A DNA stretch of 64,000 nucleotides from a virus. Its lineage: Duplodnaviria; Heunggongvirae; Uroviricota; Caudoviricetes; Schitoviridae. Positions within the stretch are counted from its first letter, which is position 1; the number at the start of each line of letters is the position of its first letter. Made by a program: the position numbers and the translations under genes. The notes beneath the pieces were generated by a model that saw nothing but the letters and a program-made list of their open reading frames with translations, was not told the DNA's origin and made no database searches. Positions 3,089-50,280 of this stretch are shown one piece after another. The DNA lies in the IMG/VR virus record IMGVR_UViG_3300047463_000135, positions 1 to 64,000 of that record; one strand, given 5' to 3'.

Positions 3089-3460
3089 ATGGGCTTCGAC
3101 TTTCCAGAAAGCAAAACAAACCAAGCTACTACTCAACCTGTTGCTGGTGCTCAATCTCGTCGTACTTCTAACCAAGAACCAAAGACACGTATTGCATATG
3201 TGAATATGTATTTACCTACAGCTGATGGTACTCGTGTCAAATTAGTATCTGATTTAACTTTAGGTTTATACCTAGAGAAAGCAGCTGAAAAGCAATTGGT
3301 TGATCTGATCAAGCAAGGTGTTATTACCGAAGAACAAGCAGGTCAATTGATACAAGTTGAAATCAATCTTACTCGTGATGAATCTAAACCACTGGTATTA
3401 GACTTATCTAAGATTGGTGTTGCTAATCCATTAGCAGGTACTCCTGTTGATGCTGAATAA
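3089..3460 (+). CDS. Hypothetical protein
   Basis: 123-aa ORF followed by a terminator. Confidence 0.5.
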   Translation: MGFDFPESKTNQATTQPVAGAQSRRTSNQEPKTRIAYVNMYLPTADGTRVKLVSDLTLGLYLEKAAEKQLVDLIKQGVITEEQAGQLIQVEINLTRDESKPLVLDLSKIGVANPLAGTPVDAE

Positions 3461-3705: not shown

Positions 3706-4668
3706 ATGAATTTAATTGAAGGCCAAATGGCTATAGAGAAGATGTTTTCACGTCGTGGTATTAAGAATGCTGTACTTGAATATATGGCTACAATCCCTGA
3801 GGTTGAAGTACGTATAAACCAAGGTATAGAGCTTATTAAGCAATGGTGTGAATCTCCTAGTGCATATGCATCTAAACAGACACGTAAAGACCATGTATCT
3901 CAGATGGACCTACGTGAGCTTACTACAGATGTATTTGTACGTATTGCTTCTCTAAATACAGAAACCACACTTAACAATCTAGCTAGTCAATTAGCTCCTA
4001 TGATTGGCTTTGATGATACTCGTGTTGGTATTCAGACTTGTGCTGAAATCATTGCTGTATTGTGCCATACCAACTTCTATGACTTAGTTAAGTACCATGT
4101 AAATAGTTCTATTTATGTGAAGTCTAACTTCCGCCTTAATGATGATCTACAGGCATATGTTGAACGTGCTTGTTATTTACCTCCAATGCTCGTTAAACCA
4201 AAGACACTACATGATAACCGTAGTAGTGGCTATCTCACTGTTAAAGGTGAATCACTGATCTTAGGTGGCTCTATGAACCATCATAATGATCCTATCGCAT
4301 TGGATGTATTAAACATCATGAATCGTTATCAATTAACACTCAATGAGTGGGTATTAGACAACGTAGAGGAAGAACCAACTCATGATCTCAATGAGATTGA
4401 GAATGGTCATCTTATGACTGAGATTGAAAAGCTTCATGCTATCTCTCAACAGAAGAAAAACTGGCAGAAGCATATTGAGCAATCACAATACTTCTATCAG
4501 CTTATTCGTATGAACGGTAATAAGATGTGGATTACTAACAAGTATGACAAACGTGGTCGTATATATGCATGTGGTCATCACATCACACCACAAGGAGCAT
4601 CGTACAAGAAAGCGATAGTAGACTTATACAATAAGGAGACTATCAATGTCCCAGAAGGATTCTTCTGA
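3706..4668 (+). CDS. Heterodimeric T7-like RNA polymerase, N-terminal subunit (N4 RNAP II small-subunit-like)
   Basis: 320-aa ORF immediately upstream of an ORF bearing T7 RNAP palm motifs; this arrangement matches the split RNAP II of N4-like phages. The assignment rests on position and context. Confidence 0.5.
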   Translation: MNLIEGQMAIEKMFSRRGIKNAVLEYMATIPEVEVRINQGIELIKQWCESPSAYASKQTRKDHVSQMDLRELTTDVFVRIASLNTETTLNNLASQLAPMIGFDDTRVGIQTCAEIIAVLCHTNFYDLVKYHVNSSIYVKSNFRLNDDLQAYVERACYLPPMLVKPKTLHDNRSSGYLTVKGESLILGGSMNHHNDPIALDVLNIMNRYQLTLNEWVLDNVEEEPTHDLNEIENGHLMTEIEKLHAISQQKKNWQKHIEQSQYFYQLIRMNGNKMWITNKYDKRGRIYACGHHITPQGASYKKAIVDLYNKETINVPEGFF

Positions 4669-10827: not shown

Positions 10828-11110
10828 TTATATTCAGTTGATGTTTAACTCAAATACATCACGCTATAAGACAGACATCTTAATTTTGTTGCATGATCAC
10901 CAGTATGATCTTAAGTGGAATAACCCAGGTAAATTAAATGCTGACTCATTTAACTTTTTAGTTATATGTCCTAAGCAGAAGGTTGCTACCTGGAAGACTA
11001 TTCAAACAGAAGACACCATTACAGTTGTTGATGGTGGTTTCATAGCTCAATATGAGCTAATACATACCATTAGTCCTTTAGCTGCTTATGAGTGGCTTAT
11101 AGGAGGTTAG
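10811..11110 (+). CDS. Small early protein (C-terminus ISPLAAYEWLIGG)
   Basis: 99-aa ORF. Confidence 0.4.
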   Translation: MSQQRNYIQLMFNSNTSRYKTDILILLHDHQYDLKWNNPGKLNADSFNFLVICPKQKVATWKTIQTEDTITVVDGGFIAQYELIHTISPLAAYEWLIGG

Positions 11111-11156
11111 CTTGGCTTGTGAGCTTCGCTCACTTGGGTGATTAATCGTAAGGTCT

Positions 11157-11372
11157 TTGGAGACTACAATGTTAACACCTAAGAACTTTAGTGATCGTCA
11201 CCAGAAGTCACTTAGTACTTTCGCAAAAGCTCATGATGAGTTACAGCAACTTCACATTGACTTAGTTAATGAAGAAGAAACTGCTGCTAAACATCTTGCT
11301 GCTTTGAAAGCACGTCGTGAAGCTGTTGAACAATCACTGAATACTTTGCGTCCTCTAGTAGGACAAAAGTAA
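11157..11372 (+). CDS. Small coiled-coil protein
   Basis: 71-aa ORF. Confidence 0.35.
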   Translation: METTMLTPKNFSDRHQKSLSTFAKAHDELQQLHIDLVNEEETAAKHLAALKARREAVEQSLNTLRPLVGQK

Positions 11373-11809
11373 TGCACTAGAAGAGCGTCCCCGACAAGGC
11401 TCGAAGGAAGTGCAACAACAGTTTGGCAGAAGCTGTATAAAAACTGCCACCCAGATTTACACCAAAGCCAAAACCTAGGTAGGTTCGATACCTACGGATT
11501 CACATAAGATTCTTCTAAGGTAGACAAAGGACATTAGGTGTTGCGAAAGAGATCAATGAAATGGCAACTCTTAGCCCTCACATTCCAGAGGCAATTGCGT
11601 CAAGTAAATGACAAAGGGAATGATTCATCGGGGAGGTAAACCAATAGATCACTTTTGCAATTGCTCTATTCCTCCCCACCATAATGGGCCTAGTAGTTAG
11701 GTACGCTAACTGAGTTGGTTAGAAGAGAGTTCAATGCTCTCTAGGTCCACCTATTAATTCATTAGGGAAGAAGTAATTCGCCCTACTCCTTCACCTAAAG
11801 GATTAAACC
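11373..11809. other. ORF-free, GC-elevated structured region; includes the long imperfect hairpin GGGGAGG...CCTCCCC (11630-11677) and a T-arm-like hairpin at 11479-11495
   Basis: Neither strand has an ORF of 60 aa or more; the base composition differs visibly from the flanks; hairpins read directly. Confidence 0.3.
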
Positions 11810-12130
11810 ATGAATGTTTATATTCCATTCTGTATGGCTATGCTTGAGCATTTAAACAAAGAGCTTAGTGTAGATGCTTATAGATTACGTGCACTAAATA
11901 TTAGTGATAATTGTAGAGCATGGGTTCACTTTAATATTGAAACTCAAGTATGGACTTATTTTGAAGTTGAAGTAGACCACAAGAGCTATTACATATGGCA
12001 CTTAGGTACGTACGAAGACTTCACTGCTTTATTACTTATTAGTGATAGTCATGCTCGTTATGCGTATGCACAAGCTAATTGTAAGACTGGTAAAGTTATC
12101 CATGGAGAAGCTCATTATGGAAGCAAATAA
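11810..12130 (+). CDS. Hypothetical protein
   Basis: 106-aa ORF. Confidence 0.45.
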   Translation: MNVYIPFCMAMLEHLNKELSVDAYRLRALNISDNCRAWVHFNIETQVWTYFEVEVDHKSYYIWHLGTYEDFTALLLISDSHARYAYAQANCKTGKVIHGEAHYGSK

Positions 12131-12419
12131 ACCATTACAACGCTATGCGTTTATTCACTTTAATGAACACATAGCAAAAGAAGTTGCTGAACTTTATGAG
12201 AAGGATTATCCATACTTCGATGATGTTAAGCATCCTAATACAATTCGTATTGATGTAGTTAAGATGAATTACGTACTAGCTAGAACAACTAACAGTGGTT
12301 TTCAGAGACCATTTCTTGATTCTAGTGTTATTCATTTCTTCCCTATGATACCTACACCAGAAGCTCGTCAGTTGCTTCTAGAGGACTTGTATGCAGACCT
12401 TGGACGTAGTGAGACTTAA
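12117..12419 (+). CDS. Small early protein, family member (PMIPTPEARQLLLEDLYADL)
   Basis: C-terminal motif present; start placed at the ATG overlapping the upstream stop. Confidence 0.45.
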   Translation: MEANKPLQRYAFIHFNEHIAKEVAELYEKDYPYFDDVKHPNTIRIDVVKMNYVLARTTNSGFQRPFLDSSVIHFFPMIPTPEARQLLLEDLYADLGRSET

Positions 12420-12687: not shown

Positions 12688-12887
12688 ATGATCTTAGGAT
12701 TGTTTAGGGGAATTATCTTGCTACTCCACCTCTGCCCTGATACCGCAGATGCGTGCATGTAATGACCTGCTGTAACAGGCTCTGGTGATGGACCTCTACA
12801 TTTACAGATGTTATGTAACTCACTTTGATAATTCCACCTAAGCAATTCTGCTTAATTTCGATGACAACTTAATATAGGAATATTCCC

Positions 12888-13602: not shown

Positions 13603-13866
13603 ATGAATGCATACTGGCTTACAGCTATTATCTTCATGGTTCTTGTTGGTACTACCTGTGCTCTGTTAATTAAACACTGGCCTCCTCTACGAGACTCAAA
13701 TGACATTGAGTTTGCGTGGGGTTGTGCCTTTGTATTAACAGTTGTATGTGGCCTTGCATGGCCTGCATTTATTGTAATAGCCATTATCGTATTTGCGATC
13801 TGGCTTCTATACACAGCAATCAACAAGCTAATTAACAAACGTAAAGGAAACAAAGATGCTTCGTAA
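13603..13866 (+). CDS. Small membrane protein (2-3 TM)
   Basis: 87 aa, hydrophobic. Confidence 0.4.
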   Translation: MNAYWLTAIIFMVLVGTTCALLIKHWPPLRDSNDIEFAWGCAFVLTVVCGLAWPAFIVIAIIVFAIWLLYTAINKLINKRKGNKDAS

Positions 13867-14671
13867 AATCGCATTAGGGTTCATCATGGCTGCTTCTGTA
13901 GCTATGACTGCATGTAGCCCGGTTACTAAAGTTACTGACGCAGAAGTTGGTATCCGTACTACATTCTCTGGTGAGATTGAAGACAAGGTCTTAGACCAAG
14001 GCTTCCACCAAGTTGTAGTAGGTGATGTAACCAAGGTATCTAAGCGTAACCTTATCTTAGAAGTTAAAACCAATCCTATTACAGTAGAGAAAGTACCAAT
14101 GGCTGCTTTCGTTACTAAAATCAACTACGGTATTGTTCCTGCAAATGCTGCTATCGCATATAAGACTGAGAAATCTCAGAACTTAGATAACGATGGCGAA
14201 GTCATGTTGTTAGGTAAATATATCAGTGACATTACAGATGCTTCTGTACAGACTGCTGTAAGCAAGTACAAGGCATTAGAAGTCAATGATAACCGTACAG
14301 CAATTGAAGCTGCTATTAAGGATGAACTTAATAAGCGTCTCAAGCTTGCAGGTAAAGATCGCTTCGTTACTGTTAATGAAATTAACGTATTAGAAGTTAA
14401 ACCACACGCATCAATTGTTGCTTCCTCTTTAGCAATCGTTAATAGTCAGAATGCTTTGAAAACAAAGCAGAATGAGTTAGAAACAGCTAAGGTAGAAACG
14501 GAAGTTAAGCGTGTATTAGCAGAAAATGCATCTGAAAAGTACATTGACTTGCAACGTGCAGAAGCTGAATTAACTAAAGCTCAAGCACTTAAAATTGCTG
14601 CTGAAAAGGGTACATTAAACTCAATGGTCATCGTGCCTGAAAAGTTTAGTTCTCTTGGTGCAATTAAATAG
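13856..14671 (+). CDS. Lipoprotein (signal peptide with lipobox MTAC) with a long helical C-terminal region; possibly SPFH/band-7-like
   Basis: N-terminus MLRKIALGFIMAASVAMTAC; coiled-coil C-terminus. The family assignment is tentative. Confidence 0.45.
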   Translation: MLRKIALGFIMAASVAMTACSPVTKVTDAEVGIRTTFSGEIEDKVLDQGFHQVVVGDVTKVSKRNLILEVKTNPITVEKVPMAAFVTKINYGIVPANAAIAYKTEKSQNLDNDGEVMLLGKYISDITDASVQTAVSKYKALEVNDNRTAIEAAIKDELNKRLKLAGKDRFVTVNEINVLEVKPHASIVASSLAIVNSQNALKTKQNELETAKVETEVKRVLAENASEKYIDLQRAEAELTKAQALKIAAEKGTLNSMVIVPEKFSSLGAIK

Positions 14672-15049: not shown

Positions 15050-15119
15050 AGATTACCCTCTGAGAGGAACAAGGTCTCCAAAACCATGTAGCTAGGTTTG
15101 ATTCCTAGGTAATCTGCCA
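15050..15119 (+). tRNA. tRNA-Trp(CCA), short (70 nt) with a reduced D-arm
   Basis: Acceptor AGATTAC/GTAATCT perfect, T-arm CTAGG-TTTGATT-CCTAG, anticodon loop CTCCAAA, encoded CCA; D-arm is noncanonical. Confidence 0.5.
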
Positions 15120-15121
15120 AA

Positions 15122-15607
15122 CAGTACGTGACTGGAGTCTGGTTATCAGTCTTCGTTTGGAACGAAAGTATGAACATTAGAACTTGTAGCAAGTGTGATG
15201 TTGAATACGAGCACTATGGTCAGAAGCACTCAGTATGTAGACCTTGTAAAAGAATCTATGACAGAGAGCAATATGCAAAAAAGACCAAGGAACAAAAGGA
15301 ACATAAACAAGAATTACAGAAACAGCGTTATATCCAAAATCGCCAATATATGTATGATTATTTAAGTACCCATCCTTGCGAAGTATGCGGAGAGTCTGAC
15401 CCAGTAGTACTTGAATTTGATCATTTAGATCAATCAACAAAACATACTGCAGTTGGCCTAATGGCTGACTACTCCTTAACTAAGATTAAGGAAGAAATTG
15501 CAAAGTGCCGTGTTCTATGTGCTAATTGTCATAAGAGACATACAGCAATCCAGATGGACTGGTACAAGCACTTGGTTCGGTAGGTTCAAATCCTACCGTA
15601 CTGACCA
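15122..15607 (+). tRNA. tRNA-Pro(TGG) interrupted at the variable-loop position by about 400 nt encoding an HNH endonuclease (5' part 15122-15168, 3' part about 15575-15607)
   Basis: 5' part: CAGTACG acceptor, ACTG/CAGT D-stem, and anticodon hairpin CTTCG-TTTGGAA-CGAA(A)G. 3' part: T-arm GTAGG-TTCAAAT-CCTAC, acceptor CGTACTG perfectly complementary to the 5' part, A73 and CCA. Confidence 0.55.
15170..15583 (+). CDS. HNH homing endonuclease
   Basis: CxxC...CxxC zinc motifs and the HNH core EFDHLDQ...N...CANCH. The start is taken at MNIRT (15170) because the longer ORF from 15128 would overlap the tRNA 5' half; the stop codon lies inside the tRNA T-stem. Confidence 0.7.
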   Translation: MNIRTCSKCDVEYEHYGQKHSVCRPCKRIYDREQYAKKTKEQKEHKQELQKQRYIQNRQYMYDYLSTHPCEVCGESDPVVLEFDHLDQSTKHTAVGLMADYSLTKIKEEIAKCRVLCANCHKRHTAIQMDWYKHLVR

Positions 15608-15609
15608 AA

Positions 15610-15687
15610 GGATCATTGAAGGGAATTGGTATACCTTCTAGTCTTAGATACTAGAGCTTCTGAGTTCGAGTCTCAGATGATCCACCA
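15610..15687 (+). tRNA. tRNA with anticodon TAG (Leu-like decoding of CUA), but class I structure with a short variable loop
   Basis: Acceptor GGATCAT/ATGATCC perfect, D-stem AAGG/CCTT, anticodon arm CTAGT-CTTAGAT-ACTAG, T-arm CTGAG-TTCGAGT-CTCAG, A73, encoded CCA. Confidence 0.6.
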
Positions 15688-16072: not shown

Positions 16073-16803
16073 CAGGTGATCTGCAGTCCCTGTACGCTGT
16101 TTGCGGATATGGTAACTTATCCTAGGCATACTAGTTCCCCTTGGTTTAATAAAGTAGAGAGACGCGGTAATCGAATCCGCCTTGTAGTTTAACGAAAACA
16201 CTCTACGCCTAGACAGTATGACTCGCTCTACTGTCATTCCACCTATGGATTAAATAGGTCAATAAGAACCACTCAACGATCACTACTACAGCCTTGTGCT
16301 AACGTATATCTGCGGTGTGTGTTCTTATTGGGATGTGAATATGCGAACCTGAATATGAGAATAGTAGCCGTTAGCCTAGTAGGTGGAACGTGAGGGTACT
16401 CATTACAGAATGAGGGCTTTACTACAGTTAATCCCATAGAGTACGAGTGTTATAGACTTCGGCTTGAAACTTACAGAGACTCGCAATCTCTGGTATTCAC
16501 ATCACCAATGAGAACACAGCTTGACCCCGGCTTTAGGGGTGCTCACTGGCCCTAGCATGTGGCTTATCACTTGCCCTCGCTCCTTAGGGTATACCTCGGT
16601 GACGATCTTCCTCATTAAGTTTTTATTCGTATGGGATTAATGATAGAGCGTGTAACGTGCAGACAGGGTAAACAACGCCCCATTAGCAGAATAGTCCACT
16701 GTGTCGATACGGACTCTCGAATTCCCAATCAACCCCTCAAGTAGAGCTGTAGTTCTACTTTTTATAGCCCATAAGTCTAACCTCTAGCTTATGGGCTTTT
16801 TTT
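16073..16803 (+). ncRNA. Candidate large structured noncoding RNA (about 730 nt, GC-elevated, ORF-free, terminator at its 3' end)
   Basis: The plus strand has no ORF of 60 aa or more; many local hairpins; the region ends in the strong intrinsic terminator at 16776-16803 and sits beside the tRNA cluster. Confidence 0.3.
16776..16803 (+). terminator. Rho-independent terminator (AGCCCATAAG...CTTATGGGCT + T8)
   Basis: Read directly. Confidence 0.7.
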
Positions 16804-36000: not shown

Positions 36001-39000
36001 GTAAGTTTGGTATTAGATAAAGCAATAGCATTGTCTACTTCTGCTTTAGTCTGTAATCCTTCAAGAGCTGATACATCAGCCTTTTTAACTAACTCACCTT
36101 CAATATTACTTACTTGACCGTTAAGTGTAGTAATAGCGTTATTAAGAGATGTCACCTTTCCATCTACTACACCTACTTCATTATGAAGTGATTGGTTAGC
36201 ATCTGCTTGAGCAGTCCAATCACGTACGTAATCGTAAGGAGATGGAAACCAATTCTTAGAAGAACCAAACTCTCCACGTACTAATACAGCCCAGTAAATA
36301 GTAGCTACAGTATCTTGTGAATAGTTACCATGGTTTAATAAGTAGAAATGTACAGCATTAGAAGTAGCATGTTCACCTGCAACAAACGTACCTTTTACAA
36401 CTTGCTTATCGCCATTGATAGGGAAGTTAGCAGATACAATACCTTCCCATCCACCACCTGCATAAGGTGCAAGAACAGTGATACCGTCTGCAGGTCCACG
36501 CTTGTGCTCAGCACAATAAATAAGTGTGTACTTCTCTCCTACAATCCATGGCTCACCTAGACTATAAACAGCATGTGGGTACTTACCTTCTTCATAGAGT
36601 TGAACCTTATTAGAGTTAACTAGGATATTCTGAGAAGAGTCACCAATAACTTTTAAATCATTTGAGAGCTTAGTATAAGCAGTAGATTGAGATTGAATAT
36701 CTGATTCATTCTGAGTAACACGTTGATCTAATGCACGTACAGATTCTGCAGTAGCAGAGTTCTTAACATCACCTTCAACTACATTAATCTGGTTCTGTAA
36801 GATGTCAGTCTTATTAGTAAGTGTCTCAATACCTTGCTCAGTAGTTCCTACACGTGAAGTAAGAGATTCAATTACCTTGGCTTGACCATTAACAAGCTTA
36901 ATATCATCAGCAATTTCTAATGACATGTAGTCCAACATAACAGTGGTAGTTGCACCTTCTTCAATAAAGATTGGTGCAATATGTGCAGCGTTATTCATTA
37001 ATTGACTTGGACTATCTAAAGTACCGTTGCCTGCAGCAACACCAGATAGAGAGCGCCCTGATAAATAGAATTCACGTTCAACCCACTGACCTACAGGAGG
37101 TTGGTACGCATACAACATATAGAATGAAGATGCAGGACCATCCGTAGGGACACCATCACTATTTACAAATGAAGACTTATCAGCAGTCTTAGATGCAATA
37201 CCAAAATAGAAGGTAGTCGTACCTGATTTAGTTTCGTATACACAGAAACGTACTCTTAAACGGTACATACGCTTAGGATCAAACATTAAAAATCTTGATG
37301 AATGAATCCAAAGATTATCTGTACCTGAGCTGTTACCGATAACAATATAGTTAGTGTTACTTGCGGTAGGATTACTGGTCTTACCTAAATAACCGGGTGT
37401 GTTATAAGCACGGGTTAAATCATTGGTTAAATCAGAACCACCATTAATAAGAATGGCATTAGTAGCTTGGTTAATAGATGCATCCAATGAAACAAGTTTA
37501 TCTTGTTGTGCTTTGATAGCATCCTTGTTGATCTGTGTTTGGTTATTAACAGAATCAACATACTCAGTACTAGCTTTACCTGCTAGATCACCTTGAATGG
37601 TATTAACATTATTCTTAATAGTAGTTATGTCATTGGTGTTAGAAGTTACAACACCATTTAGATCAGTAACCTTATTATCAATGGTTTCAACGTATGAAGC
37701 ATTAGCTTTAGTCTTATCTAAGGTATCTATATCATTTTCAATAGTAGTAACCTTCTGACCTAACGAAGTTAAACCATCAGTGTTCTGACCAACTTTAATA
37801 GTAATATCTTGAATGGCTTGACCATTAGCAGCGACACCATCCTGAGCATTCTTAAGATCAGCCTTAACAGTTGATACATCACTTACTACAGTAGCTAACT
37901 CATCTTTAGTTTGTTTAGTAGTTACTTCTAATGAAGTAATAGCTTGACCTTGAGATGCAATAGTATCGTTAGCAGTTTTTAAACCACCTTGCACATCAGT
38001 AATAGCTTGAGTATTAGACTTAACTACACCATCAATATCAGAAACAGTAGCAGTGATATCAGTTAAGCCTTTAGCATTAGCTGCTACATCATTCTTAACA
38101 TTAACCATGTCTGCTTCTACCGCAGATACTTTACCTGCAGTAACAGATGATTCATTGATAGCTATGTTGGCTTTATCTAAAGCTAGTGCAGAGTTATTCA
38201 ATGCTGTATTAGCATTCTGATCTACAGTAGTTAAGCGACCATCTAAAGCATCTACCTTATTTACAGCTACAGCTGAGTTACTTACAGCAATATCAACACT
38301 GGTTTGCATATTACCTAAAGCTGTATCAGTAGACTCTTTGTAGTTTTCTAAAGCTTGTAAATTCTTAGTGTCACCATCAGTACGTTCTTGAATCTCTTTA
38401 GTTAAGCCATCATTTAATTGATCAATTTGTTTAAGGCGTTCTTGAGTTTCCTCATCAATGCCAGCCCAAACACCTTCAAGCTTTTCCTCAATCTCAGCAG
38501 TACGATCTTGTGATTCTTGTACTAGCTGTTCTTGACGAATCTGTGCTTCACGTTGTACAGCATCAATACGATCTTGAGTTTCAGTAGTGAGTTTATCTAA
38601 TAGCTCCTTCTGATTCTCTTTCATTGTATTTGCTGTATTGTTCGCTAGGTTGATCATAGCTGTTCTGCGTTGCTCTGCTTCCGCGAGCAATTGCTTCTGA
38701 ACATTACTGATGTCTTCAATACTAGAGTTAAGCTTTTCATCTAACTCTTTAACAATAGGAGACTGTGCTAGAGCTTCTAAAGCTTTATCAATGATGTCCT
38801 GTTCAACAGGAAGCTTATCTTGAATATCTTTTAAAGCATCATCAATATCTTTATTGGTTTGAGTCTGATAGTCCTTGAACTTACCTAGAATCTCTAAATC
38901 CCATTCACGTGCTTGAGACAGAATTGTCCATGCACCCATATTGATCTCACCATTATCCATAGTGATCTGAATAGAATCCGTAGTGATATCTTGAAGCATG

Positions 39001-50122: not shown

Positions 50123-50280
50123 TGAAGTCTCTTTGCTACATCTTTACATTAGTAGTAGGTGGTTTATTTCTCTATGCAGTGATTGTCGCACTGTGGATGA
50201 TTATCCAAATTGTTGCAATTGCATTTGTAGTTGTAGCAATCATATGGCTAATCAGAAAGGTATTTACCTTACTCAACAAA

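Follow-up and report, generated by a model that had tools for sequence, protein, structure and literature searches.

tRNA-like elements and pseudo-tRNAs in the tRNA regions of phages are of an already known kind. In plant mitochondria, tRNA-like 't-elements' set the ends of mRNAs (PMC1920247), Escherichia coli RNase E cuts polycistronic pre-tRNAs 1-3 nucleotides (nt) after the CCA (PMC2190699), and pseudoknot substrates are cleaved by bacterial RNase P if a 3' RCCA motif is present (PMC12710915). At the DNA level, the early promoters of phage N4 are hairpins with conserved bases, some of which lie in the hairpin loop (PMC4496689), and in the GC-rich hairpins that serve LUZ7 as middle promoters the stem has 6 base pairs (bp) or more and the loop 3-4 nt (PMC9163698). 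Here we analyse an island without open reading frames (ORFs), at positions 11373-11809 of a 64,000-nt stretch of DNA (the window; IMG/VR record IMGVR_UViG_3300047463_000135, positions 1 to 64,000) from an N4-like (Schitoviridae) Acinetobacter phage. This interval is a non-coding RNA cassette of independently folding modules, termed A, B, an optional C, H, T and E, lodged in a slot that holds tRNA-Arg in related phages; comparison with these phages indicates that the stems of the modules are kept by compensatory substitutions.

The region matches only the Acinetobacter N4-like podoviruses VB_ApiP_XC38 (XC38), nACB1 and, by protein, At2. These three and ten metagenomic contigs were compared, about 13 non-redundant relatives in all, collected through the 67-amino-acid (aa) protein encoded just upstream of the island and through homologs of an SPFH protein encoded 2.5 kb downstream; the contigs P0020, P0002 and P0005 stop short of the island and do not enter the comparison. 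The ORF-free gap starts at the stop codon of a homologous ORF of about 70 aa in every relative compared, and ARAGORN finds a canonical tRNA-Arg(CCU) inside it in seven of them (At2, L016, L024, L025/L027, L028 and L034). In the window, a conserved tRNA slot thus takes the form of this island. An earlier note on this DNA had proposed a small RNA, a replication origin or a protein-binding regulatory region, and had considered a functional RNA unlikely should related phages lack the region or should it be a degraded gene. The island proved to be conserved and syntenic in homologous genomes, and the compensatory changes in the stems of modules A, B, H and C bear out a structured RNA. The modules are the following.

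11373-11414, plus strand: module A, a hairpin in two tiers that takes its start at the stop codon of the upstream ORF (71 aa), with outer stem TGCAC/GTGCA (11373-77/11410-14), inner stem GAGCGT/AGGCTC (11383-88/11397-402) and loop C+CCCGACA (11389-96).
11418-11451, plus strand: module B, an H-type pseudoknot with stem S1 ACAG/CTGT (11418-21/11433-36), stem S2 GGCAG/CTGCC (11425-29/11444-48), an A-rich loop 3 ATAAAAA (11437-43) and a 3' tail ACC (11449-51).
11454-11629, plus strand: module C, an optional inserted structured block, with a variable 5' sub-slot (~11466-11530) that contains a T-loop-like hairpin (11479-11495) and a conserved core (11531-11627) made of a stem TAGG.GTTGC/GCAAC.C.TTA, a hairpin GTCA/TGAC and a pseudoknot (CCTC 11576-79/GAGG 11588-91; CATTCC 11581-86/GGAATG 11617-22).
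11630-11685, plus strand: module H, a long hairpin with a tRNA-like tail; outer stem GGGGAGG/CCTCCCC (11630-11636/11671-11677) enclosing a 5' bulge TAAACC, an inner stem AATAGA/TCTATT and a 16-nt loop with TTGCAATTGC; on the 3' side ACCA (11678-81), then TAAT.
11686-11751, plus strand: module T, a tRNA-like cloverleaf of 66 nt; acceptor GGGCCTA/TAGGTCC (11686-92/11742-48; 7 bp, with G3:U70 formed by G11688 and T11746), a reduced D arm with a 3-bp stem, an 'anticodon' arm CTAAC-TGAGTTG-GTTAG (11706-22; loop 11711-17, with G33 and U37), a T arm GAGAG-TTCAATG-CTCTC (11725-11741; 5-bp stem, 7-nt loop), and discriminator A73 (A11749) followed by CC.
11752-11809, plus strand: module E, a long imperfect hairpin in the 5' untranslated region (UTR) of a 106-aa ORF, its 3' arm containing the Shine-Dalgarno sequence AAGGA (~11797-11801).

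All 13 non-redundant relatives have module A at the same position, without any change in its loop CCCGACA, a motif that occurs once in the window. In a hand-laid alignment, 98% of its cells are paired and 12 of the 13 pairs show double-sided changes; none of 500 shuffles reached the observed pairing, slid registers gave at most 48%, and the folding z-score is -2.4. For module B, likewise aligned by hand over eight distinct sequences, 97.4% of cells are paired with double-sided changes in 7 of 11 pairs, against at most 41% in slid controls. Both of its stems vary, S1 being found as ACAG/CTGT, CTAG/CTAG, ATAG/CTAT and ATGG/CCAT, and an RCC tail follows the pseudoknot in 10 of 12 relatives. The motif of module B is unique in the window and that of module E is present there in a single copy, for which reason the idea that B and E are repeated promoters was dropped. 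In L028 (4560-4635) and L029 (3232-3310), a structured insertion of about 75 nt with a T-loop-like GAGTTCAAATCCC separates A from B, a further case of small structured modules placed between conserved hairpins.

The long imperfect hairpin of module H had been described in the earlier note and is exactly as claimed at 11630-11677, with a folding z-score of -3.9 and none of 200 shuffles equally stable. Homologs with different stem sequences are found in XC38, nACB1, L016, L018, L024 and L034; in six sequences that differ from one another, every position of the outer stem pairs (42 pairs registered by hand, 40 of them Watson-Crick and 2 G-U). They share the loop motif GCAAYYRC. The hairpin is followed by an RCC tail in all of 7 relatives, and in 8 of 9 its stem is preceded by U(-1)/G(+1). 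In L016, L024 and L034, module H sits directly 5' of the tRNA-Arg.

Block C is found in the window, L013 and XC38 but not in L012 or nACB1; L014 and L015 have a version that is longer by about 85 nt. The version in L013 is that of the window, and the upstream protein is identical throughout L012-L015, so that the island content amounts to 266, 438 or 523 nt among phages with an identical upstream protein. From the window to L014 the pseudoknot of block C shows only compensatory differences (CCTC/GAGG to CCCT/AGGG and CATTCC/GGAATG to CATCCC/GGGATG), and the block is 73-88% identical to that of XC38, compared with about 46% for the flanking proteins. Since the longer block of L014 ends in ..GATCA-CCCA, the CACCCA direct repeat at the junctions of C may be an RCC(A)-type tail and not a target duplication. 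A group I intron was rejected for this block: none of the seven junction registers at the CACCCA repeat gives a U...G boundary, and no intron in Rfam matches.

Two smaller features to which the earlier note drew attention fared less well. The T-arm-like hairpin GTAGG-TTCGATA-CCTAC at 11479-11495 is present as described and is not conserved, its site being hypervariable: L014 has other, unrelated hairpins there and XC38 a 13-nt hairpin. The palindrome GCAATTGC does occur twice in the island, its copies starting at 11591 and 11657, one base off the 11592 and 11658 first given; the third copy also exists, at 50215 instead of 50213, and an additional one at 38687 had been overlooked. Four copies in the window compare with 1.2 expected, and 2 of 100 shuffles reach four. 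As key features, however, the palindromes do not hold up, for they are not conserved as such in relatives. The copy at 11591 becomes GAATTAGC in L014, and that at 11657 is part of the conserved loop motif GCAAYYRC of module H and is non-palindromic in most relatives (GCAACTGC, GCAACCGC, GCAATTAC). A kissing interaction between the two copies was ruled out because the first is not conserved in L014.

The earlier note did not mention the tRNA-like element at 11686-11751, the hairpin that starts at the upstream stop codon or the pseudoknots. Module T combines a 7-bp acceptor, a discriminator and CC with a T arm whose loop is of the UUCRANY type, whereas its 7-nt anticodon loop has G33 and U37 in place of U33 and a purine at 37. 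It thus keeps only the upper half of a tRNA (acceptor, T arm, discriminator and CC), and the decoding features are lost. ARAGORN does not report it by default and does so only at 90% thresholds, as tRNA-Thr(agt); the Rfam tRNA model RF00005 gives no match at the gathering score or at E <= 10. The folding z-score is -2.5. A homolog in L021 (GGGCGTA..TACGTCC-ACCA) keeps the acceptor and T-arm frame around a different body, with a compensatory change at 5:68, and the acceptor and T-arm helices are perfect in both elements. The G3:U70 pair is found with A73 in the window and L021 and with G73 in XC38, and is absent from nACB1 and L029. In XC38 and nACB1, the slot of T holds an RNA of about 160 nt with tRNA-like ends and covarying inner helices.

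XC38 also carries a further tRNA-like element at 3270-3366. Its acceptor stem has 8 bp, its T arm is canonical and its variable region is long; ARAGORN labels it 'tRNA-???' with a 4-base anticodon, and it weakly matches the tRNA-Sec model (22.6 bits, E = 0.07). Just upstream of it, within the island, GenBank lists gp73, a hypothetical ORF of 47 aa. A transfer-messenger RNA (tmRNA) was considered and rejected: no model matches in the window, XC38 or nACB1, ARAGORN reports none by default, and T is self-contained in 66 nt. A single permuted tmRNA call by ARAGORN at an 80% threshold was judged spurious.

Module E has a folding z-score of -3.6, with none of 200 shuffles equally stable, and is 98% identical over 57 nt in nACB1 despite a different downstream gene; its stem frame, with variable apical inserts, recurs in L021, L024 and L029. 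The hairpin is predicted to sequester the downstream Shine-Dalgarno sequence and would thereby gate the ribosome-binding site.

We assign these structures to RNA of the plus strand because of the compensatory changes, the pseudoknots, the G-U wobbles (five against one A-C when the stems of A and B are read as plus strand), the orientation of the genes and the lack of conservation of the short internal ORFs. The Rfam scan that the earlier note had recommended, run on the whole window at the gathering score and on 11000-12200 at E <= 10, gave only chance-level matches and hence no described RNA family for any module; XC38 and nACB1 gave likewise only chance-level matches.

Our leading explanation, to which we give about an even chance, is that the island is a co-transcribed array of tRNA mimics processed by host RNase P and RNase E. 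It would share a plus-strand transcript with the small genes on either side. A terminal helix with RCC(A) behind it closes three consecutive units, namely A+B (ACC), H (ACCA) and T (ACC). A+B would combine a hairpin and a pseudoknot running into ACC, in the bipartite topology of a viral tRNA-like structure (TLS), and H would be a minihelix with U-1/G+1. From these endings we infer that host RNase P takes the units as pre-tRNA mimics, with RNase E acting at the A/U-rich trailers. Bacterial RNase P acts on helices that have U-1/G+1 and end in an unpaired 3' RCCA. Module H has the features of an RNase P minihelix substrate (U or C at -1, G+1, a 7-bp and a 6-bp helix, and the ACCA at 11678-81), T has U-1, G+1 and ACC, and the pseudoknot of B is followed by ACC. 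Cleavage would divide the polycistronic transcript into defined pieces: the upstream mRNA would acquire a structured 3' end, small stable RNAs would be set free, and the downstream 5' UTR, in which hairpin E may control access of ribosomes, would be released as well. Block C would be an accessory structured module, gained and lost by recombination at short ACCCA tails.

Several points weigh against this explanation. Transcription of the island and cleavage by both enzymes are inferred; the RCC tail after B could be kept for another reason; and a pure processing signal leaves the invariant CCCGACA loop of A and the conserved GCAAYYRC loop of H unexplained. The presence of G3:U70 in three variants of T may point to a role other than punctuation. 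Close relatives differ widely in island content (266-523 nt), possibly because part of it is only weakly constrained. Moreover, only 8-13 related sequences stand behind the covariation, and the alignments of A, B and H, arranged manually around the proposed stems, give paired percentages that are too high.

The best of the alternatives, though unlikely, is that the tRNA-like units are effector RNAs and not mere processing signals. T would then be a non-decoding, alanine-accepting RNA (G3:U70, A73, CCA), and A+B and H would be mimics of an acceptor arm, all of them serving as decoys or inhibitors of host enzymes or of defence nucleases or transferases aimed at the acceptor ends or anticodon loops of tRNAs; alternatively, they might hijack AlaRS or the CCA-adding enzyme. 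Module T of the window does carry the AlaRS identity set (G3:U70 with A73). The G3:U70 pair in three T variants (window, L021, XC38), two of them with A73, agrees with such a role, but the elements of the window and L021 share ancestry, so that these observations are not independent, and nACB1 and L029 lack the pair. Effectors would also account for an upper tRNA half conserved while the body is replaced, for the RNA of about 160 nt with tRNA-like ends and covarying internal helices in the slot of XC38 and nACB1, and for the constant presence in the H loop of U(U/A)GCAA, which is the context of an anticodon of the Ala type, and the invariant loop motifs suggest specific recognition. Against this stand the lack of a match to tmRNA or any other family and a literature search for phage tRNA-like acceptor decoys that found none. 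Extended to the whole group, the proposal would be that Acinetobacter N4-like phages carry an undescribed family of tandem tRNA-mimic RNAs acting as effectors, made of A+B, H with its Ala-anticodon-like loop, and T or its version of about 160 nt; they would be aminoacylated or bound by host tRNA enzymes and serve as decoys against tRNA-targeting immunity or reprogram host tRNA metabolism. In this general form we regard it as decidedly doubtful.

Quite unlikely as well is that the island is largely evolutionary debris. Phage tRNA arrays gain and lose genes, and T and the T-loop hairpin might be decaying former phage tRNA genes and C a recombination remnant, with only A, at the end of the upstream gene, and E, in translation control, being functional. 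Decay would fit an island content that differs (266, 438 and 523 nt) beside an identical upstream protein, a module T that fails the tRNA models and a hairpin at 11479-11495 that is not conserved. Drift is nevertheless not what the stems display, since those of B, C, H and T are upheld by compensatory changes; block C is far better conserved in XC38 (73-88%) than the neighbouring proteins (about 46%), and the acceptor and T-arm helices of T are perfect both in the lineage of the window and in L021.

Very unlikely, in our view, is a role at the DNA level. The hairpins would then be promoters extruded for RNAPII or for a virion RNA polymerase of the N4 type, or else a replication origin, an operator to which a protein binds, or terminators. 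Finding conserved hairpins whose loop bases are invariant in an N4-like phage does recall the known promoter hairpins of N4 (early) and LUZ7 (middle), the palindromes are enriched in the window, and RNAPII genes lie a few kb upstream. The promoters of this family, however, have stems of 5-7 bp (or of at least 6 bp) and loops of 3-4 nt and recur at several sites (PMC4496689, PMC9163698), whereas the loops of A, B and H measure 8, 14 and 16 nt, one of the structures is a pseudoknot, and a single copy of each of the motifs of A, B and E is present in the 64 kb. Pseudoknot covariation and plus-strand G-U wobbles misfit duplex or cruciform DNA, the palindromes are not conserved as such, and no sigma-70-like sites were found. 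As to the replication origin suggested by the earlier note, the island contains no iterons or family of direct repeats, the cumulative GC skew rises smoothly without an inflection there, GC is raised and not lowered, and near-identical phages do not all have the same modules.

The reading of the island as a small protein gene that is degraded or has escaped annotation is hardly credible, even with short ORFs of 30-34 aa at 11538-11639, 11608-11700 and 11578-11682 (minus strand) and the annotated gp73 of XC38, for a 1-nt indel in XC38 breaks the 33-aa frame and shows that these short internal ORFs are no remains of a degraded gene, the gp73 frame meets a stop after 14 codons in the window, substitutions compensate pairwise without codon periodicity, and the whole of block C is missing from L012 and nACB1.

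The wider setting is that of a dense array of small genes, all on the plus strand around the island, a few kb downstream of T7-like RNAPII genes (seen in relatives). The upstream ORF ends at 11372 (stop codon 11370-11372), and identical copies of its 67-aa product are encoded on four metagenomic contigs of about 77 kb (L012-L015); the downstream 106-aa ORF has its ATG at 11810. Searches of Pfam and PHROG with the neighbouring ORFs gave no informative match. The island was rightly described as ORF-free in the earlier note: it has no ORF of at least 50 aa on either strand and is the longest such stretch of the window, followed by 16438-16803 and 1-282. The elevation of its GC content, also pointed out there, is real and modest, at 0.435 compared with a mean of 0.385 for the window (only 2.8% of 437-nt windows reach 0.435).

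Wider searches added no further relatives. The DNA-pattern scan of IMG/VR for module B returned only XC38 itself, and the corresponding scans returned an unrelated cyanobacterial gene among genome contigs and two unrelated contigs among metagenome contigs. Further IMG/VR scans for variants of module A gave no match, nor did protein-guided IMG/VR searches with the 68-aa and 199-aa neighbours. The contigs retrieved from IMG/VR by alignment of the SPFH protein are without the island, and the 68-aa protein has no homolog besides itself in a set of 5.8 billion proteins.

A second, ORF-poor island, at 16073-16803, had been thought possibly related in function. Pairwise comparison gave a best local match of E = 0.39 and thus no kinship at the sequence level. 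This second island is also conserved, unannotated non-coding DNA (80% identity over half of it in XC38, 73% in nACB1), without an Rfam match at E <= 1, and it ends in a terminator-like hairpin with a T run (~16765-16803).

Other unusual elements lie between the two islands. A tRNA-Pro(UGG) gene at 15122-15611 is apparently split in its variable loop by an insert of about 410 nt that consists almost entirely of an HNH endonuclease ORF (phrog_2255, E = 1e-33). Its 5' part reads CAGTACG..CTTCGTTTGGAACGAA and its 3' part GTAGGTTCAAATCCTACCGTACTGACCA, and intact homologs exist in L022, L034 and nACB1; neither ARAGORN nor Rfam calls the split gene, and the insert has no evident room for a group I core. 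The tRNA-Trp(CCA) at 15050-15119 is unconventional, its D arm being reduced and its anticodon stem long. It is missed by default ARAGORN and by Rfam and found only in the mitochondrial mode of ARAGORN; it is conserved in L016, L021, L024, L028 and L029 (78-83% identity). A hairpin CTAAGCA-ATTC-TGCTTAA (7-bp stem, 4-nt loop), followed by ..CGATGACAA, is found at 12838-12855 in the window, at about 5182-5200 in L016 and at about 3775-3795 in XC38 (L001). It lies about 30 nt upstream of a gene for a protein of 199-211 aa in all relatives, and its shape resembles the hairpin middle promoters of LUZ7 (PMC9163698). Finally, the tRNA array has beside it the gene of an SPFH/Band-7 protein (13856-14671) with over 100 homologs (40-93% identity), and since some of these are found in Acinetobacter chromosomes and in unrelated E217-like phages, the gene evidently moves between phage types and hosts.

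The regions of phage genomes that contain tRNAs are usually annotated for canonical tRNAs only, and the same slot can hold covarying unclassified RNAs and mimics that standard tools miss. If the modules are signals for RNase P and RNase E, they would explain how a long array of small ORFans in N4-like phages is divided into messages under separate control; as effectors, such as RNAs that accept alanine or act as decoys, they would be phage counter-measures or host-takeover RNAs of a new type. The invariant loops (CCCGACA and GCAAYYRC) and the presence or absence of modules among near-identical phages offer directly testable handles. Judged by Rfam, with the genome papers on Acinetobacter N4-like phages not covered, the bipartite A+B with its invariant loop, the minihelix H, the optional pseudoknotted C and the anticodon-less, Ala-type T appear undescribed.

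Compared with the tRNA genes and clusters of phages, and in particular with the tRNA-Arg(CCU) of its relatives, module T has the same slot, strand and flanks (A-B-H upstream and an E-type hairpin downstream), and it shares with phage tRNAs the acceptor stem, the T arm with a TTCAATG loop, the discriminator and CC. It departs from them in its length of 66 nt, 3-bp D stem, G33, U37, absent Rfam tRNA score and detection by ARAGORN at lowered thresholds only, and from the tRNA-Arg that it replaces in having no sequence similarity to it and an acceptor with the alanine-type G3:U70. The likeness to tmRNA (SsrA) lies in the G3:U70 acceptor, the T arm, the CCA and the pseudoknots nearby, as well as in the RNA of about 160 nt with tRNA-like ends in XC38 and nACB1; T, however, has its acceptor halves only 50 nt apart and no space within its 66 nt for a tag reading frame.

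The 3' TLS of viruses of the TYMV/TMV type (reviewed in PMC5723415) and the pseudoknot substrates of RNase P (PMC12710915) have the same strand topology as A+B, in which an H-type pseudoknot has a hairpin domain on its 5' side and continues from its 3' strand into ACC. The likeness is one of topology, with no sequence match and no match to a TLS family in Rfam, and A+B is internal to the transcript of a DNA phage instead of forming the 3' end of an RNA genome. With t-elements (PMC1920247) and polycistronic pre-tRNAs (PMC2190699), the island shares tRNA-shaped or minihelix elements placed between the protein-coding genes of one transcript, and likewise an upper half (acceptor and T arm, RCCA) conserved without decoding. 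Processing in those systems has been mapped by experiment and in the island is a prediction; the island further differs from them in stacking several types of mimic, a pseudoknot, a hairpin and a cloverleaf, in tandem.

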